From assembly GCA_965202915.1 (NCBI GenBank), contig OZ241847.1, positions 2,194,242 to 2,258,241 of the forward strand: a stretch of 64,000 nucleotides of DNA, read 5' to 3'. The notes beneath the pieces were generated by a model that saw only the letters and a program-made list of their open reading frames with translations, searched no databases and was not told the origin of the DNA. This document shows positions 5,478 to 35,867 of this stretch, one piece after another (positions within the stretch are counted from its first letter, which is position 1; every line of letters starts with the position of its first letter). This DNA comes from Gammaproteobacteria bacterium (GTDB lineage: Bacteria > Pseudomonadota > Gammaproteobacteria > Eutrophobiales > Eutrophobiaceae). Made by a program: the position numbers and the translations under genes.

Positions 5478-5489
5478 AATAAAACTATC

Positions 5490-6530
5490 TCAGCCCGAGT
5501 AAAAAGATTTCGCTATTCTGTAAGCAAGTTGCGGTGGCACTGCATTGCCTATTAGCTTGGCTGCGATCATTGAACTTTCACACGCAAAAACATAGTCTTC
5601 GCTGAACGTTTGTAGTGTTGCACCTTCTCTTAGGGACAATCCTCTGTTCTCCTCGGGATGGGCAAATCGACCATTTGAAATCCCGTTAAATCTCGTTGTA
5701 ATTGTTGAAGAGGGTTTATCCCACCTCAATCTCCCATAAACATCCCGAAAAGAATTATCTTTGCCTTTGTAGGTGTTCAATTGAAGCTCGGGGTCGTCTT
5801 TCCATGCGCTCCTTGTCCCGCCGTCTTTGGGTGTTAGCTTGAGCCGTCTCAAATTTTTTTCGGATAACGATGAAACTGTATCCATGAAATTATTTTCATC
5901 CTTATAACCGGATTGCAGAACGGGAAATCCATTATGGGTCCCTATAAATTCCTTCAATACGGATTCTTTCTCCGGTTGGGGAAGATCAATCGATTTTTTT
6001 ACCCTGGAAGCAATCAAGATAAATCTCTTTCTGCTTTGCGGAACTCCATAATACTTGGCATTGATAATATCCTCGACAATCTTATATTCTTTTTCAAGTT
6101 TCCGACAAAATTTGTCAAGCCCACTTTCCGCTTTGTTTCTTTTTATTCCCGGAACATTTTCTATAATTACATAACCCGGTTTGTAGTAACAGACAAAGCG
6201 CCAAAAATGATCAAGCAGTCCTCTGGTGTTCTCCGATGATCTTTTGTTCGTATTCAGGGTGGTCCAGTGCTGGCATGGGCTGCACCCTATAAAGATCAAA
6301 GAGTCGTCATTGCGTTTAATCCCACAATTTTTTTCCAGAAAAGTTCGTGGTGTGTCTTCTATATCTTTTAGAAAAAATTTTGTCCCCGGATGATTTGCCT
6401 CATATGTCTCTTTACAATCCTCATCCACATCTATCCCGGCAACAACCTTTACTCCGGCCATCTTTAACCCTTGGGACATGCCGCCGGCACCGCAAAAAAA
6501 ATCAACCGCTCTTAAGGATTTTTTTCTCAT
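5490..6530 (-). CDS. dcm: DNA (cytosine-5)-methyltransferase
   Basis: 346-aa ORF with the canonical m5C-MTase motifs. These are I DFFCGAGGMSQG, IV GCSPCQHW, VI IIENVPG, VIII QSRKRFILIA and X GNAVPPQLA. Its start overlaps the stop of the upstream ORF (ATGA, 6527-6530). Confidence 0.95.
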   Translation of the reverse strand: MRKKSLRAVDFFCGAGGMSQGLKMAGVKVVAGIDVDEDCKETYEANHPGTKFFLKDIEDTPRTFLEKNCGIKRNDDSLIFIGCSPCQHWTTLNTNKRSSENTRGLLDHFWRFVCYYKPGYVIIENVPGIKRNKAESGLDKFCRKLEKEYKIVEDIINAKYYGVPQSRKRFILIASRVKKSIDLPQPEKESVLKEFIGTHNGFPVLQSGYKDENNFMDTVSSLSEKNLRRLKLTPKDGGTRSAWKDDPELQLNTYKGKDNSFRDVYGRLRWDKPSSTITTRFNGISNGRFAHPEENRGLSLREGATLQTFSEDYVFACESSMIAAKLIGNAVPPQLAYRIAKSFYSG

Positions 6531-8872
6531 TCGCCACCGCCCAAACTGGCTATTAATGTTACTATATGTGCCGCAACCGCGGACGAGGCAGCACGCACGA
6601 CAGAATCTTCGTCATATTCCTCCCGGCCATCGGAATTATCTTCGGAGTCACTGACAAGTCTCTTATACATTGCTAATGTGAGAATGCCCACCCCCACCCT
6701 GAAGCGGTGCCTGATGATCTCTCTCTTACCCTCATCTGATTCTTTGGAAATTAAGTACAAGAGATATTTATTGGCTTTGTTCACATATATGGTTAGCGTT
6801 TCTCCTCTGGACACATGACCGCCCGACTCTTCATTGTAGTTATGTTCATCCCAATATTCTTGCTCCACCCACTCAATATTCGGAAATTCCCGAGCCGGTC
6901 TCTCTTGATTGTTTGTGTCTGTTTCATCCCCGGGCGGGTTTCTTTGAGTTTCTTCCGCACTGGCAATTTTGATCATTACGTCAAAAGTCAGAGGATCTGT
7001 TCTTTCCGGGTTTGAGTCATCAAAGCCAAACTGAACGGCAATTTCATCTCCTACTTTTGCCCCCGCGGGAGTTATGACTTTTATTCGGAATTTTCCATTA
7101 CGCAGAGAACCCGAATGTGGCAATATATCAGGTGATGGGTGAATAAACTCCCCTCGGTTGGCATCTCTTATCAAATAATCATTTTGAGCGTCTGTTCTAC
7201 ATTCAATTCGTCTGTAAGAATTTATGGGAACACTCTTAACATTGCCCTCCTCCAAGTGCGTGGGAGTTAAATATGTGGGGAACAATTTCCCTTCATATTG
7301 ATCCTCACCTCCGGATGTTGCAATCTGACTGTCAACAATACTTCCAACATCAAATAGTTCTTGAAGATCCGGATTATCTTTAACAAGATTGGAAAGAAAT
7401 TCTTTATCGGTCTGCTCTTCTATTTGCTCGCTAATACGACGGTTTTTTATTTCTCTTGCATATTCCCTAAGTTCTCCGCTCCCGGCCAAGGCATCTATAA
7501 TAATTTTCTTTAGTTCTCTCGTGAGCCCTATGTCCGCCATTCTTTCCCTGTCCGATTTAAACACGGCGGCTCGCGCCGTATTATCCATGGCATTACAATC
7601 TATTTGAACAATTAAATGGTTTCTCAAATCATCCAGTCGCGCCTTCCGCAACAGACTGGCTCTGTCCGCAGATTGGGACTGACCGTTGATCGTGTAGAAC
7701 ATTCTGTATGGCTGTTTGCGCAAATAATCCTTCATTTTCTTCAACCCAAAATAAGATATTCGGATAGTCCCCAAATCCGAATTTTCAGAATTTTCAATTA
7801 CGTTTTCCAAGTCAACTTCGCTTTCCTCACTTCTTTCATCATCGGATTTGAGCACTATATTCATACCGGAAAAAGTTCTCGGTGCAATACCCTCCGCTCT
7901 AAGACCGCTCCTTGTGGGTTGAGCATCAAAATCATAAAGACGAACAGGCAAGGCACAATTTATAAGGTTGGTCGTAAGCGCATCATATAGTCCTATATCA
8001 ACCGCACGGGCACGAGGCCCTATATCGTATTCATATAACTTCACAATGCTGCCACCATTGATGACGACACCGATATCCTCTCTGCCAAAAGCCTTGATTT
8101 CATCGGTTTCAAAACAGGCAATTTCTCCGTCGGGACAAAAATACTCAACCACTGGCAAATCCTCTCCTTCTCGAACTCCTCTTACCCTTATCAAAGTCCA
8201 TCCCCATAGACCATCCGAACCGTAAGTGGTTCTTTTGGACAGAATAAACTTATACATCCCCGCCCTGATATCTGCTCGGGTACAAAAAGGTATGGATCCG
8301 GTGCTACCCATATTAAATCGACCTTGGACAAACGGAATGCCTTCCTTATTCTTTTCTCCAAGAGATAAAAAAGTTTTTCCAAAATCTGTATGATTTTGCC
8401 CCTCACCAAAATCAACTATCGTATAGTTTGGACAAATATCATTTCTCCTTCCTGTTCTCTTAATACCAATCAAAACACTTTTTTCAGCCAGATCAGTCCT
8501 TTGATTCGGGCTTAACAAAGCCAACCTGCCTTCTTGAACTTTGGGGAAAAAGTGTTTGACAGCCTCGCTCATATCTTGGGGAGCTGATTCACCATAAAAA
8601 TCTATTTGCTCTTCCTTTGCCCTGCGCATAAGGATTGCGTCAATGGAATTAATGATTAACTCTGCCAACGCACCGACTGGTTGGCTCGTTTGGACGCTCA
8701 CCCTGTCCCAATTTTTATCCGCGCCGCCGTAAGGCTTCCAATTTTCATCAGCGCTAAATTCAGGCTGGCTTTCCATGAACCGATTAACGTCGTCGGCTGA
8801 CAAAGCACCGAGAAACTTATTCGCTATTAACTTTGAAAGTGGGCTGTTGAAAAATTTTCTCGAATCATTCAT
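6527..8872 (-). CDS. Large uncharacterised protein with a divergent N-terminal GHKL/Bergerat ATPase-like region
   Basis: 781-aa ORF and the first gene of the AT-rich operon. Candidate motifs are N-box LAELIINSIDA, G1 IVDFGEGQ and G2 QGRFNMGSTGS (about aa 68-200). I recognise no motifs in the remaining ~550 aa, which end in an acidic tail (SDSEDNSDGREEYDED). Confidence 0.6.
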   Translation of the reverse strand: MNDSRKFFNSPLSKLIANKFLGALSADDVNRFMESQPEFSADENWKPYGGADKNWDRVSVQTSQPVGALAELIINSIDAILMRRAKEEQIDFYGESAPQDMSEAVKHFFPKVQEGRLALLSPNQRTDLAEKSVLIGIKRTGRRNDICPNYTIVDFGEGQNHTDFGKTFLSLGEKNKEGIPFVQGRFNMGSTGSIPFCTRADIRAGMYKFILSKRTTYGSDGLWGWTLIRVRGVREGEDLPVVEYFCPDGEIACFETDEIKAFGREDIGVVINGGSIVKLYEYDIGPRARAVDIGLYDALTTNLINCALPVRLYDFDAQPTRSGLRAEGIAPRTFSGMNIVLKSDDERSEESEVDLENVIENSENSDLGTIRISYFGLKKMKDYLRKQPYRMFYTINGQSQSADRASLLRKARLDDLRNHLIVQIDCNAMDNTARAAVFKSDRERMADIGLTRELKKIIIDALAGSGELREYAREIKNRRISEQIEEQTDKEFLSNLVKDNPDLQELFDVGSIVDSQIATSGGEDQYEGKLFPTYLTPTHLEEGNVKSVPINSYRRIECRTDAQNDYLIRDANRGEFIHPSPDILPHSGSLRNGKFRIKVITPAGAKVGDEIAVQFGFDDSNPERTDPLTFDVMIKIASAEETQRNPPGDETDTNNQERPAREFPNIEWVEQEYWDEHNYNEESGGHVSRGETLTIYVNKANKYLLYLISKESDEGKREIIRHRFRVGVGILTLAMYKRLVSDSEDNSDGREEYDEDSVVRAASSAVAAHIVTLIASLGGGE

Positions 8873-9788: not shown

Positions 9789-11648
9789 ATGGCGGCCCGA
9801 AAAAACCGAAACAAGGCCCGGCGCAGGCAAATGAAGCTGCAAACCACCGCCAGGCGCCCCGGCACGGTGCGTAGCCGGACCGGCCCCGTACCCATCAAAT
9901 CGTCGCCGGGCGGGTTGCAATCGCTTTTTTCCGGGCTCAAGCGGAGCGTACTTCACGGGGACCCGATCCCACCCGCACTCGCGGCCACGGCGCTGTGGCT
10001 GCTGATACTCATCAGTTACCTGCCCGCGACCTGGGCCGGTTTCGTGTGGGACGACTTCGCGTTCACGGAGGCCGAACAGGTACTGCGCCCATCCGGTCTT
10101 TGGGATATCTGGTTCAAGCCGCACTCGCTGCAGAATGAAGGCCATTACTGGCCGCTCCTCTATACGACCTTCTGGCTGGAGCACAAGTTGTGGGGGCTGG
10201 ACCCGACCGGTTATCATATCGTCAACCTGCTGCTGCACGGGTTGACCACGCTGTTGTTGTGGCGCCTGCTGCTGCGGCTGGCCGTGCCGGGCGCCTGGTT
10301 CGCGGCGGCGGTGTTCGCCGTGCACCCCCTGCACGTGGAGTCGGTGGCATGGGTTATCGGACGCAAGGACGTGCTGGCGGGGCTGTTCTCCGTGGCCTGC
10401 GTGCTGAGCTATCTGCGTTTCGTGGAAGCTGGTCGCCGCGCACGCTATACGCACTACTTTCGGGCACTGGCGCTGTTCGTGGCGGGACTGTTGAGCAAAT
10501 CCATTGTCGTCACCCTGCCGGTGTCGCTGTTGATCTGGCACTGGTGGAAGCAGGGTCGCGTAGCCGTGACCGACGCACTGAGGACGCTGCCGTTCCTGCT
10601 GCTGGGGCTCGGCATCACGATCATCGACTGGTGGTACTACAAGGACCGGGAAGAGATTGTCCTGGAGGACTACTCGTTGATCGAGCAGACGCTGAACGCG
10701 GCGCACGCGCTGTGGTTCTACGTTGGCAAACTGGTCTGGCCGGCGGAACTGGCAGTCATCTACCCGCGCTGGGAAATCAACGTCAGCGAGCCACTGGCCT
10801 GGGCGTATCTGGTCACCGCCGTCGCGGTGGTGTGGCTGCTGTGGTTCTACCGCGACCGCATTGGCCGGGGGCCGCTGGCGGGGGTGCTGTTCTTCGTGGT
10901 GACGCTATCACCGACCCTGGGGTTCGTCGAGTACGGTTTCATGCAGTTCTCGCTGGTCGCCGACCGCTATCAGTACCTGGCCGGGATCGGAGTGACGGCG
11001 GGCCTCGTGGCCGCCGCGGCCCGCGTTGCAGGCCGGCTGTCGGGTACGCCGGCGAGGGGCGTACAGGCCGCGGCGGTGCTGCTGCTGGTCGTGCTGGGAA
11101 CCATCAGTTGGAACCAGGCGGGCATCTACCGCGACAACTTCACGTTCTACCAGCATATCATCGCTCTCAACCCGCAGGCCAGGAACGCCTGGTACAACCT
11201 TGGCAGAGAGTATTCCATGCAGGGCCGCACGCAGGATGCGCTGGCCGCGTATCTCACCGCCGGCGAGCAGCGCCCCGACCACGTCTGGGCGCATATCGGC
11301 GCCGGGCAGATGGCCGCGGAACTGGGAAGGCTCGCCGAGGCGGAGATGTACCTGCAACGCGCGCTTGCGGTTGACCCGAGTTTCCCGGAAGCCCTCAACA
11401 ATATGGGAGCGCTGCGGCTCAGACAAAAACGCTACAGCGAGGCGCTCGAACTCTTTGAGACCCTGATTGAGATGCAGCCCGAGTACGCCAAGGTTTATTC
11501 TGGCATAGGCGTGGCCCTGGCCGGACTCAGGCGGTTTGAAGAGGCGTTGCGGAGTTTTGACCGCGCGCTTGAACTGGACCCGTCACTGGAAGAGGCGCGG
11601 GTCAACCGCGAGCACGTATTGCGGAACTCCAAAAGCGAGAGCAGGTAA
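9789..11648 (+). CDS. Polytopic GT-C-fold glycosyltransferase-like protein (TMTC/PMT_2-like) with C-terminal TPR repeats; paralogue of 1260-3146
   Basis: 619-aa ORF that is colinear with the 628-aa protein. Shared blocks include ISYLPATWAGFVWDD, GHYWPLLYTTFWLE, LLWRLLLRLAVPGAWFAAAVFAVHPLHVESVAW, RIGRGPLAG.LFFVVTLSPTLGFV and WNQAGIYRDN. The TPR tail is more divergent. Its stop overlaps the next start (TAATG at 11646-11650). Confidence 0.8.
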   Translation: MAARKNRNKARRRQMKLQTTARRPGTVRSRTGPVPIKSSPGGLQSLFSGLKRSVLHGDPIPPALAATALWLLILISYLPATWAGFVWDDFAFTEAEQVLRPSGLWDIWFKPHSLQNEGHYWPLLYTTFWLEHKLWGLDPTGYHIVNLLLHGLTTLLLWRLLLRLAVPGAWFAAAVFAVHPLHVESVAWVIGRKDVLAGLFSVACVLSYLRFVEAGRRARYTHYFRALALFVAGLLSKSIVVTLPVSLLIWHWWKQGRVAVTDALRTLPFLLLGLGITIIDWWYYKDREEIVLEDYSLIEQTLNAAHALWFYVGKLVWPAELAVIYPRWEINVSEPLAWAYLVTAVAVVWLLWFYRDRIGRGPLAGVLFFVVTLSPTLGFVEYGFMQFSLVADRYQYLAGIGVTAGLVAAAARVAGRLSGTPARGVQAAAVLLLVVLGTISWNQAGIYRDNFTFYQHIIALNPQARNAWYNLGREYSMQGRTQDALAAYLTAGEQRPDHVWAHIGAGQMAAELGRLAEAEMYLQRALAVDPSFPEALNNMGALRLRQKRYSEALELFETLIEMQPEYAKVYSGIGVALAGLRRFEEALRSFDRALELDPSLEEARVNREHVLRNSKSESR

Positions 11649-13414
11649 TGGCGAAACGGAAAAACCCCCGCCCCGCCACTCGCCGGCGCCGACAACCTGG
11701 GGCAGCGGCGCCGACAACGGCAACGATGCCCTGGCGGTGGCGCGCGGGCGACGCCTTATTTGCCGCCGACCGCCCGCGGCTCGCCGGCGACGGCGAACAC
11801 TGGACGTATTTCTGGCCGCTGCTGGGCGCGGCCCTGCTGCTGCGCGCTGCCATCGCCCTGTGGGGTGACTTTGTGCTGCATCCGGACGAGATCATGCAAT
11901 ACCTGGAGCCGGCCCACTATGTGGCCTTCGGCAATGGCGTCCTCTACTGGGAATATCTCCACGGCGCACGCAGCTGGCTGATCCCGGGCGCGATCGCCGG
12001 CGTGCTGAAGGCGCTGGATGGCTTGGGGCTGGCGCAGCCGGCCATCTATATCGCCGTGGTGAAACTGTTGTTCTGCCTGCTGTCGCTGTCGGTGCCGTGG
12101 GCCATGTACCGCTTCACGCAAATCACGGTCAACGAGCGATCTGCTCGGCTGGCGCTGATCTTCGGCTGCTTCTGGTACGAACTGGCGGCGCTGGCGCACA
12201 AACCCTTCACCGAATTGTTCAGCACTTCCATTTTCATGGTCGTGCTCGCTCTGTCCGTGGGCAGGGAAGCGGAAAGACCCGCCAGGCTGTTTGCCATCGG
12301 CCTGCTGGCGGCACTCAGCGGTGCGGTGCGCCTGCAGTACGCACCCGTGGCGTTGCTGCTGTTGTTGCTGCGCTCGGTATCCCTGCGCAACGGCGTTGCC
12401 GGGCTGGTGTCGTTATGGGCGGGCGCCGGGCTGCTGACGCTGCTAGTGGGTATCTTCGAATGGCAGACCTGGGGGGCGCCGTTTCATTCCTACCTGAGCA
12501 ACTTCTTTATCAATCTCGCCATTGACCCCGCACGCGCCGGTGAATCAAGCCGATGGCTTCTGTTGGGGCAGTTGGCCGCGGCCAGCGGCGGCATGGCACT
12601 GATCGCCTTTGCCGCTGCGCTGCCCAGGGGGCGGCGGCATCTGCTCATCCTGGTGACGAGCGCGGTGATACTCGTCCTGCACCTGCTCCCGGAGCATCGC
12701 GAATACCGCTTCATCCACGTCCTGATCCCGTGCTGGTTGATGCTGCTGGCGGCCTGGATCGCGCGCTGGGGCGACGGATTGTCCGGCGAACGAGGCCGGA
12801 TATCCGCACTGGCGCGGCGCTGGGGCGCGGCGGCGGTGCTGGCCTTCGGCATCCCAGCCCTACTCAATGCGTTTCCCTGGCAGAGCCGGGTGTACCAGAG
12901 TTTCTCCGTGGAAAAACCGGTGTACTACTTGCGCAATCAGGACCCGATATTTGAGATCATGTCTTTCCTGGCCGCCCAGGACGACGTGCACGGAGCTCTC
13001 TACCATACCCGGGAATACAACGCATACTTCAGCACTGGCGGCTATTACTACCTGCACCACGACGTCCCTTTCTATACCGCGCAAGACACCTGGCAAACCA
13101 TCAGGGAACGGCACCCGGCGGTGCCTCAGGAATCGTTGGTTTCCCATATCGTGACCGAGGCCGACGGCCCCGCCATCCAGGGGTTCGAACGACTGCTCCG
13201 GCGTGGAAACCTGGCGCTGTGGCGGCGCCGGGACAACGACAGTGCAGTCCCCCGCTGGCGCGAGCACGTGATCAAGGTAAGCCATGCGGACCTAAACGAC
13301 CTGGTGAGCAGAACCATGCGGCGCCTGAACGCCTCTTCCATGCTCGACCTTTTCGTAGCCGATGACTTGTACTGGGTGGAGGCGCCACCGTTGTTTGAGT
13401 CGGCGGATGAATAA
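11648..13414 (+). CDS. GT-C mannosyltransferase-like membrane protein (GT22 / PIG-B-ALG9-like)
   Basis: 588-aa polytopic ORF. Its first-loop motif LHPDEIMQYLEPAHYVAFGNGVLYWEYLHGARSWLIPG matches the PDE..Q.LE.AH...FG.G.LTWE...G.RS pattern of Dol-P-Man-dependent GT22 enzymes. It is translationally coupled to the upstream gene. Confidence 0.65.
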   Translation: MAKRKNPRPATRRRRQPGAAAPTTATMPWRWRAGDALFAADRPRLAGDGEHWTYFWPLLGAALLLRAAIALWGDFVLHPDEIMQYLEPAHYVAFGNGVLYWEYLHGARSWLIPGAIAGVLKALDGLGLAQPAIYIAVVKLLFCLLSLSVPWAMYRFTQITVNERSARLALIFGCFWYELAALAHKPFTELFSTSIFMVVLALSVGREAERPARLFAIGLLAALSGAVRLQYAPVALLLLLLRSVSLRNGVAGLVSLWAGAGLLTLLVGIFEWQTWGAPFHSYLSNFFINLAIDPARAGESSRWLLLGQLAAASGGMALIAFAAALPRGRRHLLILVTSAVILVLHLLPEHREYRFIHVLIPCWLMLLAAWIARWGDGLSGERGRISALARRWGAAAVLAFGIPALLNAFPWQSRVYQSFSVEKPVYYLRNQDPIFEIMSFLAAQDDVHGALYHTREYNAYFSTGGYYYLHHDVPFYTAQDTWQTIRERHPAVPQESLVSHIVTEADGPAIQGFERLLRRGNLALWRRRDNDSAVPRWREHVIKVSHADLNDLVSRTMRRLNASSMLDLFVADDLYWVEAPPLFESADE

Positions 13415-13654
13415 AAGTTTGTGGTCACGATCTTACACGGGCAGCCCGATGCCGATACCGTTCGCAGGTGTGGCCCACCGGGCCAGGTGGTCGGCGATGC
13501 TTTCCGACCCCATGGAGCCCCGCGCGGCCCCGGAATAGTCTTCGCAACCGCTCATTGGTTTGCCGGCGACAATATGGCACACTCTCCGGCAGTTTGATTG
13601 TAATGTTGATCCTGTCTTTTGATTTGCTTTTTCATTGCTTTAGGAGGCCCGCCC

Positions 13655-14404
13655 ATGTCCAAAAACCTAAGCGACTTTTCAACCCTGAGCCTGGACTGCT
13701 ATGGCACACTCATTGACTGGGAGACTGGCATTTGGGACGCGCTACAGCCCCTGATCCGGCGATCCGGACGAGACGACGTCGTGCGCCGCCAAGGACTCGA
13801 GGCGTTCGCCCGATTTGAAAATGCCCGCGAAATGGAGACACCGGAGCTGCCCTACCCGGAGATTTTGCAACGAACCCACGCCGACGTGGCGGCCTACCTG
13901 GGAATGACCACCTCGGTGGAACTGGACCGCGAGTTTGCCTGCTCCATCGCCCACTGGCCGGCCTTTGCCGACACCGCCGACGCGCTGCGCCGCCTGCGGA
14001 AGCACTATAAACTGGTGATCCTGTCCAACGTCGACCGGGCCGGATTCGCCGCCTCGGCGACCAAGCTCGGCGTCGCCTTTGACGCCGCCTACACAGCGGA
14101 AGATATCCGCTCCTATAAACCCGCCGCCGCCAACTTCCACTACCTGATCGAACATCTCCAGGCCGATCTCGGCGTTAAGCGCGAAGCCATCCTGCACACC
14201 GCCCAGAGCCTGTTCCACGACCACGCACCGGCCAACGCCTTCGACCTCGCCAACGTCTGGATCGACCGCCAGGGGCTGTCGCATAGCGACAACTGGGGCG
14301 CCACCGCCAGGCTCGACAAGCGCCCCGACGTGGACTTCCTGTTCCCGACCCTGGCGGCGATGGCGGACGCAGTGGAAGGGGAGGTCGAGCCGCCCCAGGG
14401 TTGA
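13655..14404 (+). CDS. HAD-superfamily hydrolase, haloacid dehalogenase type II-like
   Basis: An internal ATG of the 261-aa ORF is preceded by AGGAGG. Motifs are LSLDCYGTLIDWE (DxYGT nucleophile motif), ILSNVD, SYKP and the C-terminal DH/D region. Confidence 0.75.
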   Translation: MSKNLSDFSTLSLDCYGTLIDWETGIWDALQPLIRRSGRDDVVRRQGLEAFARFENAREMETPELPYPEILQRTHADVAAYLGMTTSVELDREFACSIAHWPAFADTADALRRLRKHYKLVILSNVDRAGFAASATKLGVAFDAAYTAEDIRSYKPAAANFHYLIEHLQADLGVKREAILHTAQSLFHDHAPANAFDLANVWIDRQGLSHSDNWGATARLDKRPDVDFLFPTLAAMADAVEGEVEPPQG

Positions 14405-14712
14405 AAGCGGTCATGCACTGTACCAGTTAAGGATATAAATCCAGTGGTGGGTCTGGTACCTGGCGTCGTTCCTGATTCCGCACTGATGGCGGGGCGGGGA
14501 GCAAGTGCACAGCAGGGGCCAGGACTGAACACTTCGGCAGTGGGTGCTGCCTGGCGTCTTGCTGGTTGTACAAACGCGCCGGTGCCACGTTGCTGGCGGT
14601 GCTGCTTCCCACCAATTGCGCCGCCGGGACATTTTTAATGAACTATGTCCACAAAAAATTCACTTGTCCGAGCGAAAGCTTTGTAGTGCCCGCCCTGGTG
14701 CGCGAGATTCAC

Positions 14713-15643
14713 TTACCCGTTCGCCATTGTGGAGACGGTCGTGTATCTGCGCGCGAGTGCCGCACGAGAGACACGGTGTTCGTCGACCAGTGGCGGGATT
14801 CCCCGATGTTGCCGTATTACTTGAGCGGTCAACTCATTTTCTGCTGCGGCCTGGGACACTACACCAGACTGCCCGGTGACCTTGTATAGGGTGATATCCT
14901 CGCGCACTTGCTCCAACAGATAGAATTCCATCCGGGCATGGTTGAAAGCGAAGCGATCTCCTGACCGGTTGTTGAACACCAGCTTGGAGAGCGCAATGTT
15001 GACGACTACCAGCGCGGCCAAAATTGTCAGTATCCAGTGATTAGACAGCCCTAGCCTGCAAACCACGGCAAACCCCTTGAGATGGGTCGGATTTCGACCC
15101 TGTGCGTAAACCAGCGTCAGCAGCAGAATCAAAAGAAAAAGCAGCACGTGTAAGGAATACACCTTCTGGATAATGGACTGCGACCAGAATAGCTTGGAAA
15201 ACCCGTAGGCGAAGCCGGCCATGTAGCCGCCGAGGCGGCCGCCCGTCAGGTGGACCGCCACCAGATATAGCACCGCGCAGGCCGCCGCGCCCAAAAGGGC
15301 GCTCAATATGTTGCCGGCCAGCGGGCGCGAAAGCAACGGCAGGTGGGCGAACGGGAAGCACAACATGCTGTACAGCGGGTAACCCGGCGGGTGCACTGGT
15401 TGGCCGTAGTGGCAAATCAGGTTGAAGATCGCTGCGTCTTCGTAGGTGACGACACGGGGCATCGTGGCCAGATATACGATAAAAAGCCCGGTAAACACGG
15501 CCAGAGGGGGGGCAGCCCTGTCCTTCGATGTTATCGCGTAATGAAAACAAGCTAACCGTAGCGGCGTTGCGCACCCTGTCTTGGGACTGGGGGCGCACCT
15601 TACCCGAACGGGTACGGTTTTTTCTTTTACTCTTTCTGCGCAT
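14713..15643 (-). pseudogene. DUF2723/TMEM260-like GT-C membrane protein, reading frame broken at a C7 homopolymer (pseudogene, phase variant or sequencing error)
   Basis: The 261-aa ORF (14713-15498) carries YEDAAIFNLICHYGQPVHPPGYPLYSML, the DUF2723 first-loop signature. Its frame stays open upstream (..KDRAAPPLAVFTG..). A basic N-terminus MRRKSKRKNRTRSGKVRPQSQ...EGQGCPP lies in another frame, starting at 15643. Removing one C from the C7 run joins the two frames. Confidence 0.6.
15506..15512. repeat. Homopolymeric G7 (C7 on the coding strand) tract at the frameshift point of the DUF2723-like gene
   Basis: Read directly from line 15481 (ccagaggggg ggcagccc). Confidence 0.9.
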
Positions 15644-28082: not shown

Positions 28083-29018
28083 ATGAAAGCGCTTATTTGT
28101 GGCTCAGTTGCCTACGATAATATTATGGTCTTTCCGGACTATTTTAAAAACCATATTTTGCCCGATAAGGTACACATGCTTAATGTGTCATTCATGGTGC
28201 CGAGTCTGAGGCGCGAGTTCGGCGGCTGCGCGGGAAACATCGCCTATAATCTAAATCTGCTCATGGATGATATTGCCGTGCCCATGGGAACGGTGGGTAA
28301 AGATTTCCAACCTTATGCAAACTGGATGGATAAAAATAAGATAAATCGGCAATGCGTCAGAGTCATTGATACCGTTTTTACCGCGCAGGCCTACATTACC
28401 ACCGATTTGGATGATAATCAGATCACCGCTTTTCACTCCGGGGCGATGGAATTTGCGCATCACAACAAAATTGTGAACAAAGACGATATAGCCATCGGCG
28501 TGATTGCGCCCGATGGCCGTGAAGGCATGCTTCAGCACGCCGCACGGTTTCATGATCTGGGCATTCCTTTTATCTTCGACCCGGGACAGGGCATGCCTAT
28601 GTTTGGCGGAGAAGAATTAAAGGATTTTATCCATCAGGCGGATTGGATCACGGTCAATGATTATGAATGGCAGCTCATGCAAAAGTACACCGGATATAAC
28701 GCCGAGGAGGTTGCCGAACAGGTGCGGGCACTGGTTGTGACCCTGGGCGGTCAGGGATCGATAATTTACGCGGCGGGCAAAGAGTATAAAATACCGGCGG
28801 TACAAGTTGATCACTTACAGGATCCAACCGGTTGCGGCGATGCTTTTCGCGCCGGCCTGATGTACGGCTTATTAAAAGATATGGATTGGGAAACCATGGG
28901 GCGCGTTGCATCGTTAATGGGCGCCATCAAGATTGCATCACACGGCAATCAGAATCATTCATTCACGTTCGACGAGTTTCAAGCAAAATTCAAAGAAAGC
29001 TTTAACCGAACAATATAA
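28083..29018 (+). CDS. PfkB-family carbohydrate/nucleoside kinase
   Basis: 311-aa ORF with GGCAGNIAYNL near the N-terminus and the PfkB signature DPTGCGDAFRAG near the C-terminus. Confidence 0.85.
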   Translation: MKALICGSVAYDNIMVFPDYFKNHILPDKVHMLNVSFMVPSLRREFGGCAGNIAYNLNLLMDDIAVPMGTVGKDFQPYANWMDKNKINRQCVRVIDTVFTAQAYITTDLDDNQITAFHSGAMEFAHHNKIVNKDDIAIGVIAPDGREGMLQHAARFHDLGIPFIFDPGQGMPMFGGEELKDFIHQADWITVNDYEWQLMQKYTGYNAEEVAEQVRALVVTLGGQGSIIYAAGKEYKIPAVQVDHLQDPTGCGDAFRAGLMYGLLKDMDWETMGRVASLMGAIKIASHGNQNHSFTFDEFQAKFKESFNRTI

Positions 29019-29021
29019 AAA

Positions 29022-31367
29022 TCATCCACCGATTGCGTCGCGGCGGCCGGCGCGTTTGCCGATCAATAGCGACGCAATTGCCGGCAAAATCAAAATTGCA
29101 CCCGCCATGCTGACAAGTAACATGAAGCTAAGAAGAACGCCCATGTCGGCCTGGAATTTTAACGGAGAATACAACCAGGTTATCACCCCGGTGGCCAGCG
29201 TTACGCCGGTAAAGATGACACCGAAACCACTGGTTTGCAAAGCGATAAAATACGCCTGGCGTATGCTCGCGCCCCGCTTCAAGGAGTCGGATATTTGGCT
29301 GTATATGTAAATCCCGTAATCGACACCGATGCCTATGCCCAATGCAACCACCGGCAGGGTGTTCACCTTCAAACCGATTGCAAGATAACTCATCAGGGCA
29401 TAGCTAAGTAAAGACACAAGTACCAGGGGTAATACGATGCACAGCATCCCGCTGATGGATCGAAATTGTATTAAACAGAGCAATATGATTGCGGCAAAAA
29501 CATAAAGTAAAATTGGAAATTGTGCCGCCCTGACCTCCTGGTTAGTGGCCGCCATTACACCGACGTTGCCGGTCGCGAGTCTGAAATTGACCAAATCGGT
29601 TTGATTTTCGGTCTTAAATTGTTCCACGCCGTCTATTACCGCGTCAATCGTTTCGGCCTTGTGGTCCTGGGTGAATATATGCACCGGCATGGCACTGCAA
29701 TCAGTGTTCAACAATCCGGAAGAGGTCGGCACGTGGGAAACGGCACGGGTCAGGGACGACCGGTTCCTGGGCAATACTCGCCACTTCATATCGCCTTCAT
29801 TCCATCCGGCGTTTATTCTTTTGGCAATTAACGGCAGCCCGACCACGGATTGAACTCCGGGCGTGTTTTGCATGTGCCATGCAAACCGATCGATCAAATC
29901 CATGACGTGATAATCGATACAACCTTCACTCTTTGTTTCGGCGATTATCGAAATCACGTCGACACCGATTGAAAATCGTTTTGTGATCGCGTCGGTGTCG
30001 ACGTTATAGCGCGCCTCTTCATGCAATTCCGGAACGCCGCGATGCAAGTCGCCTATCTTCACATCCGTCCCCTTTACAAACCCGAAAATGCCCAGCAATA
30101 CCGAAACTGCAATAATCGATTGCGCGTAAGGATAAGCGGTCAGGCCGGACGTCTTCCACCATAAAGCTCGCAGAGCATCGGCCCGGCGTTGTAATTTTTC
30201 ACCATAAGACGCGTCAAACTTGATAAATGAAATCAGCACCGGCAGTAAAAATAGGTTGGTAAAAATGATCACGGCCACGCCTATGCTTGCGGTGATCGCC
30301 ATTTCCCGGATGATATCGATCTCGATGAACGAGATGCTTATAAAACCGATCGCGTCACTGATAAGCGCAATCGAGCCGGCAATGAATAATTTTCTAAAAC
30401 TTTTTTTGGCCGCGTTCAAACTATCGGCGCCCCGATAAATTTCAGCGCCCGCGGCGCCAATCATCTGCACGCCGTGGCTGACCCCGATGGCAAAGATTAA
30501 AAAGGGCAGAAGTATCGACATCGGGTCGATTCCAAATCCGAACAGGGACAGCACGCCCAGTTGCCAGATCACCGCAACCAGTGAACAGACCAATGGCACG
30601 ACCGCCATTTTGATCGATTGCGCATAATAAATGACCAGCAACGCGGTGATCAGAAACGCAATCGCAAAAAACGCAACCACCCGCTTGACGCCTTTGCTAA
30701 TTTCGTTAATTACCATCGCAAAGCCTGTGATATGGTAATCGATATTTGTTGCCGCATATTTTGTCCTGATATTTTCTTGCAATTGTTCGGCAACGCGGAC
30801 GTAATCAAGCCGTTCGCCGGTTCTTGGATCAATCTCCAGCAGTTGTGCGCTGATTAACGCCCCTGAAAAATCATTCGCCACCAGCCGACCCAACAGGCCC
30901 GCCTTGATGATGTTTTCCCGTACCCGCTTGAACCCTTCATCGGTCGCCGCAAAATTATCAGGAATAACGTTGCCGCCGGCAATGCCCTCCTCGACCACCT
31001 CGATAAAACGCACGTTAGGGGTAAAAAGTGATCTAATTTGGGCGCGATCGACACCGGCAATAAAAAATACTTCGTCGGTCACCTTATTCAAGGTATTAAA
31101 GAATTCGGGAGTAAATATATCCCCCTCTTTCGCCACCAGGGCAACCAGAATTCGGTTTGCCGCGCCAAACTCATTCTGATATTGGATGAAGGTTTGCATG
31201 TATTCATGTTTGAGCGGCAGTAATTTGTCAAAACCGGCGTCCATTTTAAGGTGGCTGGCCGACCAAAGCATGAATGCGCTTATGAGCAGGAATATGCCGA
31301 TCACCACCGCACGGTTGGCAAATAAAAACCATTCGAGGCAGGCAAGCGGGGCCGATTGCCGCATCAT
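29022..31367 (-). CDS. RND-superfamily (MMPL/HpnN-like) transporter
   Basis: 781-aa ORF with two blocks of ~6 TM helices separated by large soluble loops. It overlaps the upstream gene by 4 nt. Confidence 0.8.
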   Translation of the reverse strand: MMRQSAPLACLEWFLFANRAVVIGIFLLISAFMLWSASHLKMDAGFDKLLPLKHEYMQTFIQYQNEFGAANRILVALVAKEGDIFTPEFFNTLNKVTDEVFFIAGVDRAQIRSLFTPNVRFIEVVEEGIAGGNVIPDNFAATDEGFKRVRENIIKAGLLGRLVANDFSGALISAQLLEIDPRTGERLDYVRVAEQLQENIRTKYAATNIDYHITGFAMVINEISKGVKRVVAFFAIAFLITALLVIYYAQSIKMAVVPLVCSLVAVIWQLGVLSLFGFGIDPMSILLPFLIFAIGVSHGVQMIGAAGAEIYRGADSLNAAKKSFRKLFIAGSIALISDAIGFISISFIEIDIIREMAITASIGVAVIIFTNLFLLPVLISFIKFDASYGEKLQRRADALRALWWKTSGLTAYPYAQSIIAVSVLLGIFGFVKGTDVKIGDLHRGVPELHEEARYNVDTDAITKRFSIGVDVISIIAETKSEGCIDYHVMDLIDRFAWHMQNTPGVQSVVGLPLIAKRINAGWNEGDMKWRVLPRNRSSLTRAVSHVPTSSGLLNTDCSAMPVHIFTQDHKAETIDAVIDGVEQFKTENQTDLVNFRLATGNVGVMAATNQEVRAAQFPILLYVFAAIILLCLIQFRSISGMLCIVLPLVLVSLLSYALMSYLAIGLKVNTLPVVALGIGIGVDYGIYIYSQISDSLKRGASIRQAYFIALQTSGFGVIFTGVTLATGVITWLYSPLKFQADMGVLLSFMLLVSMAGAILILPAIASLLIGKRAGRRDAIGG

Positions 31368-32431
31368 CGATTGTTTTGGAAAACGTCACGCCGCGTCAAG
31401 CGTTTAATGCCAAATTCACCGACCAACACCAGCCCGTCATCAGCGACCGTACTGATTGCCGCAATCCCCTGTCGTTGCTCCAGGGAGCGGGACTGGAACG
31501 TTGCCCCATTATCGCGACTGAGCAGATACCGGCCTCCGGTCGCGGAGATAACGATGCCGTCGGCCAATCCAAGCCCTGCAGTTAACCTTTCCGTGGTATT
31601 AATATCGATTTTATTCCAGTTAACGCCGGCATCGGTCGATCTGTACAGATGGCCGCGCAGACCGAACACCAAAAGAGTATCGGCTCGTGCCGGCAAGACG
31701 CCAAAAAAAGAGCCGTCATAGGGGGACGAGATCGCCGACCAGGTCGCACCCTGGTCGAAAGATTGAAAAATATTGCCCGCTTCCGCGGCAATATATAACA
31801 CTCCTTCGTCAGACCCGGCAATATCATGCAAATGAAAATCAAAGAAGTCTTCAGCGGCGCCATCGGTGCCGAGCAGGTCGGCAAAGGCCAATTGCCGCCA
31901 ACTGGAACCGCCGTCTTGCGTCAGCAGATATAAACCATATGCACCGATCGCAATGCCATGATTTGCATCGAAAAACCAAAGATCGAGTAATGGGGCGTCC
32001 AATTCAATGTTAGAGTGGACTTTGGTCCAATTTTTGGCGCCGTCCTCGGTTTTCAGAATAATTGCATCATGACCGGCGGCCCAGCCGATGCTATCATCCA
32101 GCATAAAAACACTGGTCAGCGTTGCTCTGCTTGCAACCCTGGCCTGATGCCAATTTACACCGTCGGCCGAATAAAGAATATGGCCTCGTTCTCCGACCAC
32201 CACGACCAACGACTTGGAGGATGCCGCCGACAGCAATAAGGATTGTTTTGCCAGCGGCGCAATAGTGGCGTATTCATCGTTTGCCAGGACAATCCCGGCT
32301 CCGAGGAATAAAAATAATAAGGGCATTGAAGAAACAAAACCGGAGGGCTTCGGCGCGTGATGAAACATTGAACCGCCATCATTAAAAAACCTGTTCATTG
32401 CCGCCACCGGAGCTGATTTTCCAGTCGGCAA
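31364..32431 (-). CDS. BNR/Asp-box repeat beta-propeller protein (Ycf48-like)
   Basis: Six S/T-x-D-G-x-x-W-type repeats are present: SADGVNWHQ, TEDGAKNWTK, TQDGGSSWRQ, SFDQGATWSA, STDAGVNWNK and SRDNGATFQS. There is an N-terminal hydrophobic signal/anchor. The exact start is uncertain. Confidence 0.75.
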   Translation of the reverse strand: MPTGKSAPVAAMNRFFNDGGSMFHHAPKPSGFVSSMPLLFLFLGAGIVLANDEYATIAPLAKQSLLLSAASSKSLVVVVGERGHILYSADGVNWHQARVASRATLTSVFMLDDSIGWAAGHDAIILKTEDGAKNWTKVHSNIELDAPLLDLWFFDANHGIAIGAYGLYLLTQDGGSSWRQLAFADLLGTDGAAEDFFDFHLHDIAGSDEGVLYIAAEAGNIFQSFDQGATWSAISSPYDGSFFGVLPARADTLLVFGLRGHLYRSTDAGVNWNKIDINTTERLTAGLGLADGIVISATGGRYLLSRDNGATFQSRSLEQRQGIAAISTVADDGLVLVGEFGIKRLTRRDVFQNNR

Positions 32432-32439
32432 GCGGTCAT

Positions 32440-33792
32440 TTATCGGCGTCCCCGCCTGCGCAACGCGCCCGGCGTAAATTCCCAGTTGGAAAAATTCACA
32501 TTGAAGTTAAGCGGCATACTCTCATTATTCAGTCCTATGGCCAGATATCGGCCAACCTGCAGATCGGTATGCACTTCCAGCGTGGTCCATACACTTTGGA
32601 CGTCATAATAATTCATCGCAAAGCCCTCGGAGACCCGCCACAGCTGATCACGATTGTCATAATGATCGACTATCAGGATCTGCCATGAATCTTCATCGAC
32701 ATAAAATACTCTGCGTTTATAGATATGGCGCACACCCGGTTTCAACGTCGCCCGCACCACCCACACTCGGTGCAATTCATAGCGAGGATAACTCTGATTA
32801 ATATGCAACGGGGTCAAAATATCACCGTATTTAAGTGATGGGGAATGCAATTTGTAGCTGTTGTACGGCACGTAGATTTCCTTTTTACCCTCCAGGCTCC
32901 AGTCGTAACGTTCGGGACTGCCGTTGAACATGTCCAGTTGGTCATTGGTGCGCATACCATCCGATGCCGTACCCGGATTATCAAACGCCAGGTTGGGTGC
33001 GCGTCTCACCCGCCGTTGACCGGGATTATAAAACCATGCTTTGCGATTTTCCGCCTTTTGATTCATGGTTTCATGAACCAATAATATACCACCCGCCAAA
33101 CGAGCCGGGGCTTTCACTTCCTGTTTGAAATATAAAATAATGTTATTCAGTTTATCCGGCGTCATATCCTCATGGCTGTATAACATGGCAAAATGATCAT
33201 GGAACTGAACCAGGGTATAATCACCTCCCCTTGTTGGTGTCGCCTGGGCAATATTTCGTTCGACATACTCTCCGCGCCAACGCAATATATGATTCCAGAT
33301 CACTTCCAGCCCGTTCGCGGGGATTGGAAATGGAATGCCCAGCACCGCGTTTTGTACGCCGTTACCATCCGCGGTCAGCCTCGCCGACGCGGCGATCCGT
33401 TTAGTCGCGTCGTAGATGTGCCTGGGTGCCGAGGCGCTGCGCCGAGTCGGGTATATATTCATCTTATAAGTGTCAGGATAGGTGCCAAGCAATGCCTTAT
33501 GCCCCGCACTTAATTTATCCGCGTGGTCATCGGCGTTATTTGCGGTTATGGTAAATTTCACGGCATCGCCGGCATACGGGTCCGTATAATGTTGGCCGGG
33601 TATATAAGCGGACGGTGGCGTAGTAATACCGCCCTCCCAGGCGGGAATGGTGGCATTCGCATTGGCCGCTTTATCGCCACCCAAAGGCGTGAGGTCATTG
33701 TCCAAACGTGCAATTTGATCCGCGGAGATTTCTGCGGATGCAGGCAATGATATTAACGGCAGAATCAGGAGGAAACTGTTTATCAATCTCAT
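32440..33792 (-). CDS. DUF1329-family periplasmic protein (LolA-like fold family)
   Basis: It has a signal peptide (MRLINSFLLILPLISLPASA). The family-typical N-terminal block DLTPLGGDKAANANATIPAWEGG follows. Confidence 0.7.
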   Translation of the reverse strand: MRLINSFLLILPLISLPASAEISADQIARLDNDLTPLGGDKAANANATIPAWEGGITTPPSAYIPGQHYTDPYAGDAVKFTITANNADDHADKLSAGHKALLGTYPDTYKMNIYPTRRSASAPRHIYDATKRIAASARLTADGNGVQNAVLGIPFPIPANGLEVIWNHILRWRGEYVERNIAQATPTRGGDYTLVQFHDHFAMLYSHEDMTPDKLNNIILYFKQEVKAPARLAGGILLVHETMNQKAENRKAWFYNPGQRRVRRAPNLAFDNPGTASDGMRTNDQLDMFNGSPERYDWSLEGKKEIYVPYNSYKLHSPSLKYGDILTPLHINQSYPRYELHRVWVVRATLKPGVRHIYKRRVFYVDEDSWQILIVDHYDNRDQLWRVSEGFAMNYYDVQSVWTTLEVHTDLQVGRYLAIGLNNESMPLNFNVNFSNWEFTPGALRRRGRR

Positions 33793-33811
33793 AATTTATT
33801 CTCCGCCGGAG

Positions 33812-35518
33812 TTAGAAGGAATATTTAACGTTAAAGGCAAAGAAATCACGGTCATGTATCAAATTTTGCCGGCCTGCGCCAAAGAAATTGGTATAGCTCA
33901 TATCGACCTCCCATTGATTCTGATAGATCGCGCGCAAACCCAAATTAAAGGATTTTCTGCCTTCAATAAAATTACCGCCTGGTCCGGGGCTGATTCCATG
34001 TATATCATGTTGCCAGCCAAAACGCGGTTGCAAATTGACCGCATTAAAAAGCGCATTATTATAATCAAGCCTGCCAACCAATCGATATCCGTACGCGGTT
34101 GCATCAGGAAAATTGGTCAATGGCTCAGACGCCGGCTGACCGAGCAAAACCACGGACGCGGTGGCGGGCACAAATGTATGAGGGGCTTCCAACCGGAATG
34201 TACGTTTAGCCGGTAGATTGTGGACATGGGTGATTGCAAATTCACCTAATAAAAAAGCGGAACTTGCCTTTAACGTCGGCCCGAATATTTTCGAAACAGT
34301 GAACTGAAATTGGCTGCTGTCTCGCAATATAAAACCGTCGAGGCGATTGCCCGCCGAAAATGAGCCCGCCGGTGTGATTTGGTTCGGAACACCCAGACCG
34401 GCGGCCAGCAATTCCTCAAGGTCAATTTGAAACGGCGCATCACGCCTGTAAGAATATTCACCCTGTATCGCTATGCCCGACTGACCAAGTTCATTATTAA
34501 AGCTGAAACCGAGCAGTTGTATATCCTCAGGATAACTAATGAAATACCGGGCATCAGTCAACCCACCCCGGCTGTTGCCGGAAATTGCATTTACGATCGG
34601 TAATTTGCTGTGATAATTAATGTAATAGAAGCCAAATTCGGTGGCATTAAGAATCGGGGTAAAGACTCTGATCGCCATACCATATTCTCCACCGTTGGCC
34701 GGTTCCCGGTCCGGGCCCCTGGCAAGATGGGATGCATCCATAAAGCTCCGATCGGTCCCCCTGCCAAAACCGGCGGCCACCGCAAAAACACCGCCCTTGC
34801 CAACAAAATCATTGGTGCTGAAATACGAACCCGGCGGATCAATAACGGTCTGTTCCCAATCATATTGATAAAAGGCCTCGACCGAAATATTTTCCGTTAT
34901 GGCCACATCACCCCAGATCATGCCGACCGGAATCAATGCCTCACGCACCTCCGCACCGGGCGTTCTCAATCTCGAGACGTCAACCGGATTGATGGTATTG
35001 ATACCGTTCTGAATGAAGGTGCTTTCTCCCCAACTCAACACCTGTTCACCGACCTTGATCGTACCCGGCACCTTGCCTATGGAAAAATCCAGCCACGCAA
35101 ACAAATCCCGTAAGACCAGGTTCGATTCTACAAGGCGTTTGGCGTCATTGCTCAGCGGGGTGCGATCAGTCTTATCAATCGAATGGTCGCCAAAACCACT
35201 GCCGCGAAAAAAGATCCCGGCATGGTTTTTATAAACAAGATCGAGCTCGGTGGTGAATTGTCCGGTTGCGGCGACTAATCCGGGGTCATAGTTCAAATTA
35301 CCATCATCGCCGTTGATGGAAAAGGCCGAACCGCCGTTGGCAACGCCCACCAGTTGTTTCGACCTGGATTGTACTCGGTATAGATGGCCGTAGGTTAAGA
35401 TGGTATCCCAACTACCACTAAACTCGTTAAATCTAAATGCAACGGCATTAACGGAAGCCGAATACTGCAACAAGATCAATACGGCAAACAGTCGCTTAAC
35501 CGGGCACAAATCAATCAT
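33812..35518 (-). CDS. DUF1302-family outer-membrane beta-barrel protein
   Basis: The start is placed at the internal ATG 35518, before the signal peptide (MIDLCPVKRLFAVLILLQYSASVNA). It shows alternating beta-strand patterning and a terminal ...FNVKYSF (C-terminal Phe). The ORF-track extension to 35854 overlaps the rimP promoter region. Confidence 0.7.
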   Translation of the reverse strand: MIDLCPVKRLFAVLILLQYSASVNAVAFRFNEFSGSWDTILTYGHLYRVQSRSKQLVGVANGGSAFSINGDDGNLNYDPGLVAATGQFTTELDLVYKNHAGIFFRGSGFGDHSIDKTDRTPLSNDAKRLVESNLVLRDLFAWLDFSIGKVPGTIKVGEQVLSWGESTFIQNGINTINPVDVSRLRTPGAEVREALIPVGMIWGDVAITENISVEAFYQYDWEQTVIDPPGSYFSTNDFVGKGGVFAVAAGFGRGTDRSFMDASHLARGPDREPANGGEYGMAIRVFTPILNATEFGFYYINYHSKLPIVNAISGNSRGGLTDARYFISYPEDIQLLGFSFNNELGQSGIAIQGEYSYRRDAPFQIDLEELLAAGLGVPNQITPAGSFSAGNRLDGFILRDSSQFQFTVSKIFGPTLKASSAFLLGEFAITHVHNLPAKRTFRLEAPHTFVPATASVVLLGQPASEPLTNFPDATAYGYRLVGRLDYNNALFNAVNLQPRFGWQHDIHGISPGPGGNFIEGRKSFNLGLRAIYQNQWEVDMSYTNFFGAGRQNLIHDRDFFAFNVKYSF

Positions 35519-35867
35519 TCCCTGGCCATACACTGATATCCCTCCAAAAATAACGCGTTTGCATGCACAAAAACCGATGTGATTTTTATCCTCAACGCAA
35601 TCCAAGCATACCCGGAAGCGGCGGCTGATTGCAAGGATGACGCGACTTATTAGCGTGCAGGCACAATCGCGGTGGCACATGGATTGCCCCGTATGGTTGT
35701 AGGCGGAGCTGACAGAAGCCGGCGGGACTAAGCCGATCAGCTCAGCGCACCGATTGCCACCGACAAATTGCCCAAAATTGGTATGGCAATTATTTATTAA
35801 AGCAGTTATAATAGTCTGGCATGATGTATTTTGGGAGTGGGCCTTAGCGCCCACTTTTTGGTTTTAT

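Follow-up and report, generated by a model that had tools for sequence, protein, structure and literature searches.

A conserved DUF1302–DUF1329–propeller–RND cassette in a gammaproteobacterial core genome as a candidate system for moving hydrophobic molecules across the envelope

Organization of the locus

We analyzed a 64,000-nt stretch of the genome of a Gammaproteobacteria bacterium of the family Eutrophobiaceae (assembly GCA_965202915.1, contig OZ241847.1, positions 2,194,242–2,258,241 of the forward strand; hereafter the window), centering on a cassette of four intact minus-strand genes at 29022–35533. A map of open reading frames (ORFs) placed four long ones here, running in one direction throughout, as had been reported in a preliminary description of this DNA, and hidden Markov model searches of Pfam and NCBIfam bore out the families named there: a DUF1302 outer-membrane β-barrel, a DUF1329 periplasmic protein, a BNR propeller, and an RND/MMPL transporter (Table 1). 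Both the profile results and the literature agree with the suspicion that this conserved module moves hydrophobic or lipidic substrates. Inside the cassette, no further ORF of at least 80 amino acids was found on either strand, except for short ones overlapping the four genes.

Table 1. Features of the window, with positions counted from its first nucleotide
Feature	Position	Strand	Remarks
DUF1302 outer-membrane β-barrel	33812..35533	-	573 aa from GTG 35533; PF06980
DUF1329 soluble periplasmic protein	32440..33792	-	450 aa; N-terminal domain and LolA-like half-barrel; PF07044
Ycf48-like BNR propeller, soluble periplasmic	31364..32398	-	344 aa from ATG 32398; PF14870
RND-superfamily inner-membrane transporter, MMPL/HAE3 kind	29022..31367	-	781 aa, ~12 transmembrane segments; PF03176
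Divergent intergenic region DUF1302/rimP	35534..35867	.	334 nt; sequence read
781-aa ORF	6527-8872	-	No Pfam or PADLOC match
C5 cytosine DNA methyltransferase	5490-6530	-	4-nt overlap with the 781-aa ORF
GHKL-ATPase/Hypoth_Ymh protein	3816-5477	-	PADLOC 'REase_II' match

Two of the gene starts required attention. The longest ORF for the DUF1302 gene spans 33812–35854, and its real start lies near 35533. We took GTG 35533 as the start, which sets the protein length given in Table 1, because GGAGG lies 7 nt before it, the closest relative in our comparison (L005) carries an ATG at the matching position, and a metagenome copy (L003) is called from there too; on these grounds it is likelier than the ATG five codons downstream (35518) at which the gene had previously been begun. 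The longest ORF for the propeller gene opens at TTG 32431, and gene callers choose ATG 32398. The barrel and DUF1329 genes are separated by 19 nt and the last 4 nt of the propeller gene are shared with the RND gene, in keeping with the spacings and overlaps of 4 to 19 nt first noted, but the gap of 8 nt between the DUF1329 and propeller genes becomes 41 nt with the likelier propeller start. Such spacings would allow little room for separate transcription of the genes.

Pfam and NCBIfam profiles identified uvrA and a PfkB-family kinase gene on one side of the cassette and rimP-nusA-infB on the other. The genes for the kinase and the RND protein run toward each other and leave only 3 nt between their stop codons (29016–29024), so any terminator of either must sit inside the other. 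Core genome also makes up the wider window (znuABC, ssb, rpsF, dnaB, alr, radA, and sdhAB), and the G+C content of the cassette (0.48–0.51) equals that of the surrounding core regions; we thus see no sign of recent acquisition.

The 334-nt region between the divergently oriented DUF1302 and rimP genes is our candidate site for the cassette promoter, which presumably lies there. Its sole strong sigma-70-like match points toward rimP, its sequence shows little conservation with that of L005 outside a rimP-proximal block, and the repeats within it are trivial ones only. Promoter-like sites numbered 20, against 13.7±3.4 in shuffled sequence, and terminator-like sites 13, against 10±3.4; none fell convincingly between cassette genes, and scans that barely exceed the shuffled background are uninformative on transcription. 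An Rfam scan detected no RNA element in the 5′ region of the cassette, nor elsewhere in the scanned sequence except for one tRNA.

Families and folds of the four proteins

The barrel gene product matches PF06980 over nearly the whole profile (E=1e-158; 530.2 bits against a gathering threshold of 23.2; positions 4–541 of 541). It begins with a Sec-type signal peptide ending in SVNA, has no lipobox, and terminates in NVKYSF; the C-terminal Phe that had been noted earlier is shared by 46 of the 53 barrels compared (52 orthologs plus that of the window). Sequence and profile searches returned no meaningful relative of DUF1302 in the PDB. A strand-counting preprint treats the family as a non-prototypical barrel and counts 18 strands at one point and 16 at another. 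ECLIPSE (2026) gives 18 strands, likens the barrel to AlgE and OccAB, and states that the family lacks a solved structure and, in P. aeruginosa, direct functional characterization.

Among the four proteins, conservation is highest in DUF1329, where 39% of the columns are at least 95% conserved; the share is 29% in the RND protein, 17% in the barrel, and 14% in the propeller. DUF1329 matches all of PF07044 (E=1.9e-154; 514.9 bits against a gathering threshold of 23.1; positions 1–368 of 368), its C-terminal part additionally matches PF17131 LolA_like (E=5.8e-9), and it carries a Sec signal peptide without a lipobox. The DLTPLG..IPAW.GG block singled out in the preliminary description is present and largely invariant in 84 homologs. 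The fold is a LolA-type half-barrel resembling LolA3/4Z48, placing the protein in the LolA/LolB superfamily. Residues 234–287 (GGILLVHET...NPGQRRVRRAPN.AFDNPGTASDGMRTNDQ.D) form a largely invariant 54-residue stretch that was also the sole long segment with a predicted local distance difference test score (pLDDT) below 50 when the protein was modeled alone; we read this segment as a putative partner interface.

A query with DUF1329 matched 2,744 representatives of clusters at 50% identity, and an NCBI contig of 2.49 Mb as well as several metagenome contigs encode the exact protein of the window, between the same flanks. Among the homologs are recurrent natural fusions that join an N-terminal TPR region of ~420–470 amino acids to a full DUF1329 (P0422, P0429, P0464, P0468, P0471, and P0481, of 840–885 amino acids, and P0483, of 1198 amino acids), as well as one PKD–DUF1329 fusion. 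These fusions suggest that DUF1329 can belong to a fixed periplasmic scaffold rather than acting as a free shuttle. Their layout of TPR region plus barrel recalls periplasm-spanning secretion scaffolds of the AlgK/AlgE kind.

Several other leads concerning DUF1329 were discarded. An esterase role was rejected on the grounds of the fold, which is not that of a hydrolase. A profile match to the S-layer protein 7qle (E=0.003) was dismissed as a low-complexity alignment. P0195, which might have served as Rosetta-stone evidence in the form of a DUF1329–BNR fusion, joins a piece of the DUF1329 C terminus to a linker that is out of frame and has a signal peptide in its interior, and is a frameshift artifact; a weak MMPL match at the N terminus of P0419 (E=4e-4) is a probable gene-call artifact.

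The third protein matches PF14870 (PSII_BNR/Ycf48; E=3.2e-17) as well as BNR, and carries a Sec signal peptide; no lipobox was found in 62 of 65 sequences. It had been described as six-bladed. An AlphaFold2 model built from a 77-sequence alignment (pLDDT 90.1; predicted TM-score 0.85) has seven four-stranded blades instead, and its top Foldseek matches are the seven-bladed Ycf48 structures 5ojr and 2xbg (TM-score 0.66–0.74), at 15–17% identity in the structural alignments. Asp boxes, four canonical and two degenerate, sit in six of the blades only, which explains the earlier count. Since the protein scores 61.1 with NF010237 (Ycf48), below the cut-off of 326, we call it Ycf48-like and not Ycf48.

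The RND protein passes the threshold for PF03176 MMPL (E=1.2e-25; 90.6 against 20.5). Its best NCBIfam model, TIGR00921 HAE3 (E=4.9e-50; 170.3 bits), stays below the curated cut-off of 351.9, and we therefore call the protein HAE3-like/MMPL. It likewise falls short of the cut-offs for the HpnN models TIGR03480 (68.2 against 751.85) and NF052374 (23.3 against 1100), for MMPL TIGR00833 (89 against 875), and for ACR_tran (27.5 against 28). The 12 transmembrane segments (TMs) claimed for it agree with the ~12 hydrophobic segments we count, 11 of them resolved by a crude hydropathy scan and TM9 recognized by eye. Two periplasmic loops of ~180 amino acids are predicted, and in size they resemble those of MmpL3 and HpnN more than those of AcrB.

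The best solved relatives of this transporter are MmpL5, MmpL3, and MmpL4. In TM10, D683-Y684 aligns with the Asp-Tyr dyad of MmpL3/MmpL5, and in TM4 the protein has S297-H298-Q301, that is, Ser-His where the MmpL3-type relay has Asp-Tyr. D683, Y684, Y687, S297, H298, and Q301 are invariant in 54 sequences; because of this invariance and the dyad alignment, the transporter is likely to be active and proton-coupled. On an ENA metagenome contig apparently from the same species (L001, 12426–14767; proteins 97–100% identical), gene calling splits this gene into two parts, of 657 and 140 amino acids, reflecting either a frameshift or an assembly error; it is intact in L002, in L003, and in the window.

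Conservation and gene neighborhoods in relatives

We scanned species-representative genomes and obtained 265 relatives, of which the best 80 provide the locus counts given here. At 66 of these 80 species-level loci the cassette is complete, with gene order and strand unchanged, so the arrangement is not due to chance; the exceptions are contig ends, one frameshifted RND gene, or lone DUF1302–DUF1329 pairs. Where such pairs lack adjoining propeller and RND genes (L037 and L071), the downstream genes are unrelated and supply no alternative inner-membrane partner. The best species-level locus is 79% identical to that of the window, and across the 80 loci, which range from Gammaproteobacteria to metagenome-assembled genomes (MAGs) of Desulfuromonadales, DUF1329 is 62–79% identical. 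Against L005, identity is 79% for DUF1329, 75% for the barrel, 74% for the RND protein, and 63%, the lowest, for the propeller; the first three values fall within the span set by InfB (67%) and NusA (83%).

Median gaps between the orthologous genes are 18 nt from DUF1302 to DUF1329, 73 nt from DUF1329 to the propeller, and 5 nt from the propeller to the RND gene. Because two short gaps flank a longer one, the cassette reads as two tight pairs, and this reading fits both the split of the cassette in Pseudomonas and the published AlphaFold contact maps discussed below.

The core setting between uvrA/pfkB and rimP-nusA, to which the preliminary description drew attention, holds for this genome and for L005, the only two to share the rimP-nusA neighborhood, but not for the other relatives. 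In 15 species, more distant members of the clade, a gene for a Lipase_bact_N lipoprotein lies directly upstream on the same strand, at gaps of 15–265 nt (4141 nt in L039). Genes for FadD (15 species), FadE (11), and enoyl-CoA hydratase (19) also occur nearby, with SDR, thiolase, and alpha/beta-hydrolase genes in others, and in 38 of 65 species one or more lipid-catabolism genes lie within 6 kb of the cassette. None of these neighbor families is encoded in the 64 kb of the window.

Two further associations were seen in relatives. Genes for Ser/Thr kinases with cNMP-binding domains lie upstream of the barrel gene on the same strand in 22 species, mostly closer relatives (L006–L038, also L045 and L047). 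They usually form two tandem copies, the nearer one 100–260 nt away, and L011 and L017 have a single copy ~5.7 kb away; the window and L005 have none. Their presence hints that phosphorylation or cyclic nucleotides may regulate the cassette. On the downstream side, three genes encoding a radical-SAM/DUF3641 protein, a GT2 glycosyltransferase, and a DUF2064 protein recur together in about five to six relatives (e.g., L008 and L037).

Comparison with characterized systems

The same gene set has been named AmeABCD in Castellaniella defragrans 65Phen and described as a tetrapartite HAE3-type RND system (Puentes-Cala & Harder 2018; PMC6394551). The two cassettes correspond in family, order, and approximate size. 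In both, genes for a DUF1302 barrel, a LolA-like DUF1329 protein, a COG4447/Ycf48-like propeller, and a 12-TM RND protein of ~780 amino acids follow one another, and those of the window are adjacent and co-directional; AmeD has 787 amino acids against 781 here, and AmeB 451 against 450. They differ in setting, since ameABCD is substrate-induced and lies in a monoterpene catabolic island, whereas the window copy sits among core genes. Deletion of ameABCD lowered limonene tolerance even on acetate and raised Nile Red accumulation (PMC6394551).

Fitness data link the four families elsewhere. Price et al. (bioRxiv 10.1101/072470) found cofitness among the same four genes in Shewanella amazonensis (Sama_1588-1591) and in Kangiella, in both of which they are adjacent, and among the split pairs of Pseudomonas, and they proposed export of a cell-wall component. 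The preliminary description placed the four-gene arrangement in Pseudomonas and in marine hydrocarbon-degrading gammaproteobacteria, but in Pseudomonas the four genes are not adjacent: they occupy two separate loci (PP_0765/0766 and PP_2018/2019 in P. putida) and are regulated by a LuxR-type factor, neither of which is a feature of the window. P. putida mutants proved defective on Tween 20 and butyl stearate, and an esterase was suggested (Thompson et al. 2020). In later work the system was reread as transport, with co-folds giving PP_0765–PP_0766 and PP_2018–PP_2019 contacts (Foldy 2024), and ECLIPSE (2026) reports an interface predicted TM-score of 0.84 for a DUF1302–DUF1329 co-fold. The two sub-complexes suggested by the co-folds match the two tight gene pairs seen here.

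The cassette also appears in work on catabolism. In Betaproteobacteria, the four genes fall within the AphS, AphR, and AphT aromatic regulons; in a benzene-degrading strain of Desulfobacterota, the cluster is highly expressed and its proteins are among the most abundant; and in Delftia, deletion of a DUF1329 gene impaired growth on phenanthrene. With this partial experimental characterization, the module is less obscure than was implied.

Each component has better-known counterparts outside such cassettes. The RND protein shares with MmpL3 and HpnN a topology with small periplasmic loops, and with MmpL3 and MmpL5 the aligned TM10 dyad; it differs in scoring far below the ortholog cut-offs and in its TM4 Ser-His, and the MmpL3 and HpnN genes are not grouped with those for a barrel, a LolA-like protein, and a propeller. 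The partners of the window transporter also set it apart from HAE1 tripartite pumps of the AcrAB-TolC type, as these are DUF1329, BNR, and DUF1302, and none of the four cassette proteins matched a HlyD-family adaptor or the TolC family. With the Lol pathway (LolCDE–LolA–LolB), the cassette has a LolA-type half-barrel in common; here, however, the energizer is an RND and not an ABC protein, and an integral barrel takes the place of the lipoprotein LolB as acceptor. At twice the size of LolA, DUF1329 moreover has an extra N-terminal domain and the invariant 54-residue insert. Ycf48/HCF136, the best match of the propeller in both sequence and fold, is a photosystem II assembly factor and thus a lumen-side partner of a membrane protein complex; it shares the seven-bladed BNR architecture, while the protein studied here differs in its low identity in the structural alignments and in its missing lipobox, and no photosystem genes were seen in the window.

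Proposed mechanism and alternatives

On balance, we think it probable that the four genes specify one envelope-spanning transport system for a hydrophobic molecule, which in this clade would most likely be an acyl lipid or fatty-acid derivative. The system is probably proton-driven and would probably work outward between the two membranes. The RND protein and the propeller would constitute an inner-membrane pair, in which the seven-bladed Ycf48-like propeller would rest on the periplasmic loops of the transporter as a docking scaffold, and the barrel and the LolA-like carrier or plug would constitute an outer-membrane pair. DUF1329 could then shield the hydrophobic cargo on its way through the periplasm and use its 234–287 segment, together with the N-terminal domain, to dock onto the DUF1302 barrel; the barrel would insert or release the cargo at the outer membrane. 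Family identities, the two folds, invariant residues, and gene order and spacing are direct observations in this scheme; cofitness, the tolerance and ester phenotypes, and the predicted contacts come from published work; and we infer cargo, direction, proton coupling, and stoichiometry.

To our knowledge, the characterized bacterial HAE2/HAE3 RND proteins (MmpL3 and HpnN) all move lipids outward. We favor the outward direction because of this precedent, the tolerance data for AmeABCD, and the TPR–DUF1329 fusions. Since the cassette has a core context and has been kept in a possibly small genome, a housekeeping role in envelope lipids would be preferred over the handling of xenobiotics.

Several points weigh against this outward, proton-driven system. 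The lipase, FadD, FadE, and enoyl-CoA hydratase genes close to the cassette in 38/65 relatives fit uptake for catabolism. In C. defragrans, growth of the mutant is poor on hydrocarbon monoterpenes and normal on their oxygenated forms (PMC6394551), and the P. putida defects are confined to esters, with normal growth on free fatty acids (Thompson et al. 2020); both patterns favor acquisition over efflux. Proton coupling is argued from homology only, and TM4 contributes Ser-His to the dyad instead of Asp-Tyr; the low pLDDT of DUF1329 residues 234–287 may stem from a shallow alignment, in which all sequences are at least 68% identical, and not from folding on binding; and the literature searched gives neither a cargo for any cassette member nor a solved complex.

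It is possible, though we hold it to be the lesser likelihood, that the same four-protein machine runs inward, the barrel admitting esters, acyl lipids, or hydrocarbons past the lipopolysaccharide, DUF1329 carrying them, and the RND–propeller pair inserting them into the inner membrane, whence they would reach FadD and β-oxidation. Beyond the catabolic neighbors, including the upstream lipase gene, and the C. defragrans growth pattern, this would account for the impairment of P. putida mutants with Tween 20 and butyl stearate, set against unaffected growth with laurate or myristate, in pooled assays where secreted goods would be shared, and it agrees with the abundance of the cassette proteins in the benzene degrader and with the phenanthrene phenotype in Delftia. 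Yet inhibition of the ameABCD mutant by high limonene on acetate is a phenotype of tolerance, not of uptake; small hydrophobic molecules need no inner-membrane importer; the window holds none of the lipid-catabolism neighbor families of its relatives; and we know of no bacterial RND importer. Efflux pumps, those for solvents among them, are commonly encoded beside catabolic genes too, so such neighbors are compatible with export. A model for the inward mode exists in eukaryotes, where NPC2 hands cholesterol to the RND-type protein NPC1. That the cassette is a bacterial counterpart of this hand-off, fitted with a plug-and-barrel gate and serving acyl-lipid scavenging in this organism with its possibly small genome, strikes us as rather doubtful; if true, it would be the first inward-acting bacterial RND system.

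The LolA/LolB-superfamily fold of DUF1329 and the lipoprotein gene immediately upstream in 15 species raise the further idea of lipoprotein sorting or surface display, with the RND protein extracting an acylated protein such as the lipase lipoprotein, DUF1329 acting as a LolA-type chaperone, and the barrel placing the client in or across the outer membrane. A cell-bound esterase would, in addition, explain private, ester-specific defects in pooled fitness assays. We nevertheless judge this improbable: neither the window nor its closest relatives have a lipoprotein gene beside the cassette, the aromatic, monoterpene, and benzene contexts offer no obvious client, known lipoprotein extraction uses the ABC transporter LolCDE and not an RND protein, and LolA3, the closest solved relative of DUF1329, has neither the Arg feature of LolA nor the Leu feature of LolB and shows only weak binding to LolB. 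The chances are slimmer still that DUF1302 and DUF1329 form an outer-membrane/periplasmic esterase or hydrolase, as proposed for P. putida, to which the RND pair is only loosely linked. Ester-specific phenotypes for which an esterase has not been identified, together with the many invariant His, Ser, Asp, and Glu residues of DUF1329, speak for such an enzyme, but the match of DUF1302 to a barrel family is full-length, synteny of the four genes extends to 66/80 species, the genes are cofit, and the later modeling by the P. putida authors moved to a transport reading.

Other features of the window

A low-GC island on the minus strand at 3816–8872 (39–43%, against ~50%) comprises three genes, listed in Table 1. 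The protein encoded by the 781-aa ORF has 351 homologs; the best 120 listed are 45–74% identical, and the few that are named are hypothetical proteins. In a MAG of Burkholderiales, its homolog again directly precedes a C5 methylase gene, and this protein probably represents an uncharacterized restriction-enzyme family. A further feature concerns 9789–15498 and 1260–3146: a high-GC stretch (62–65% over ~10–14 kb, against ~50% for the window) carries genes for a TPR protein of 619 amino acids and a GT22/Alg9-like glycosyltransferase, and nearby genes specify a TMEM260-like protein and another TPR protein, of 628 amino acids. These represent eukaryote-like protein-mannosyltransferase families, and their base composition is odd.

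Significance

The cassette of the window is a well-preserved copy of the published AmeABCD-type system; it adds little that is new and is not a new kind of system. What is new here is the invariant network of the RND TM10 Asp-Tyr and TM4 Ser-His, the LolA3/4Z48-like fold of DUF1329 with its 54-residue segment, and the association with lipase and β-oxidation genes. The window copy alone leaves the picture of the family unchanged, while the very strongly conserved clade, with D683, Y684, and H298 of the RND protein, residues 234–287 of DUF1329, and its lipase and β-oxidation neighbors, offers targets for mutational and biochemical work. The cassette is widespread and recurs in studies of hydrocarbon, terpene, ester, and aromatic degradation as well as in lists of the Pseudomonas 'dark proteome', and an answer to how it works would close a gap in our understanding of the passage of very hydrophobic molecules through the periplasm of Gram-negative bacteria.

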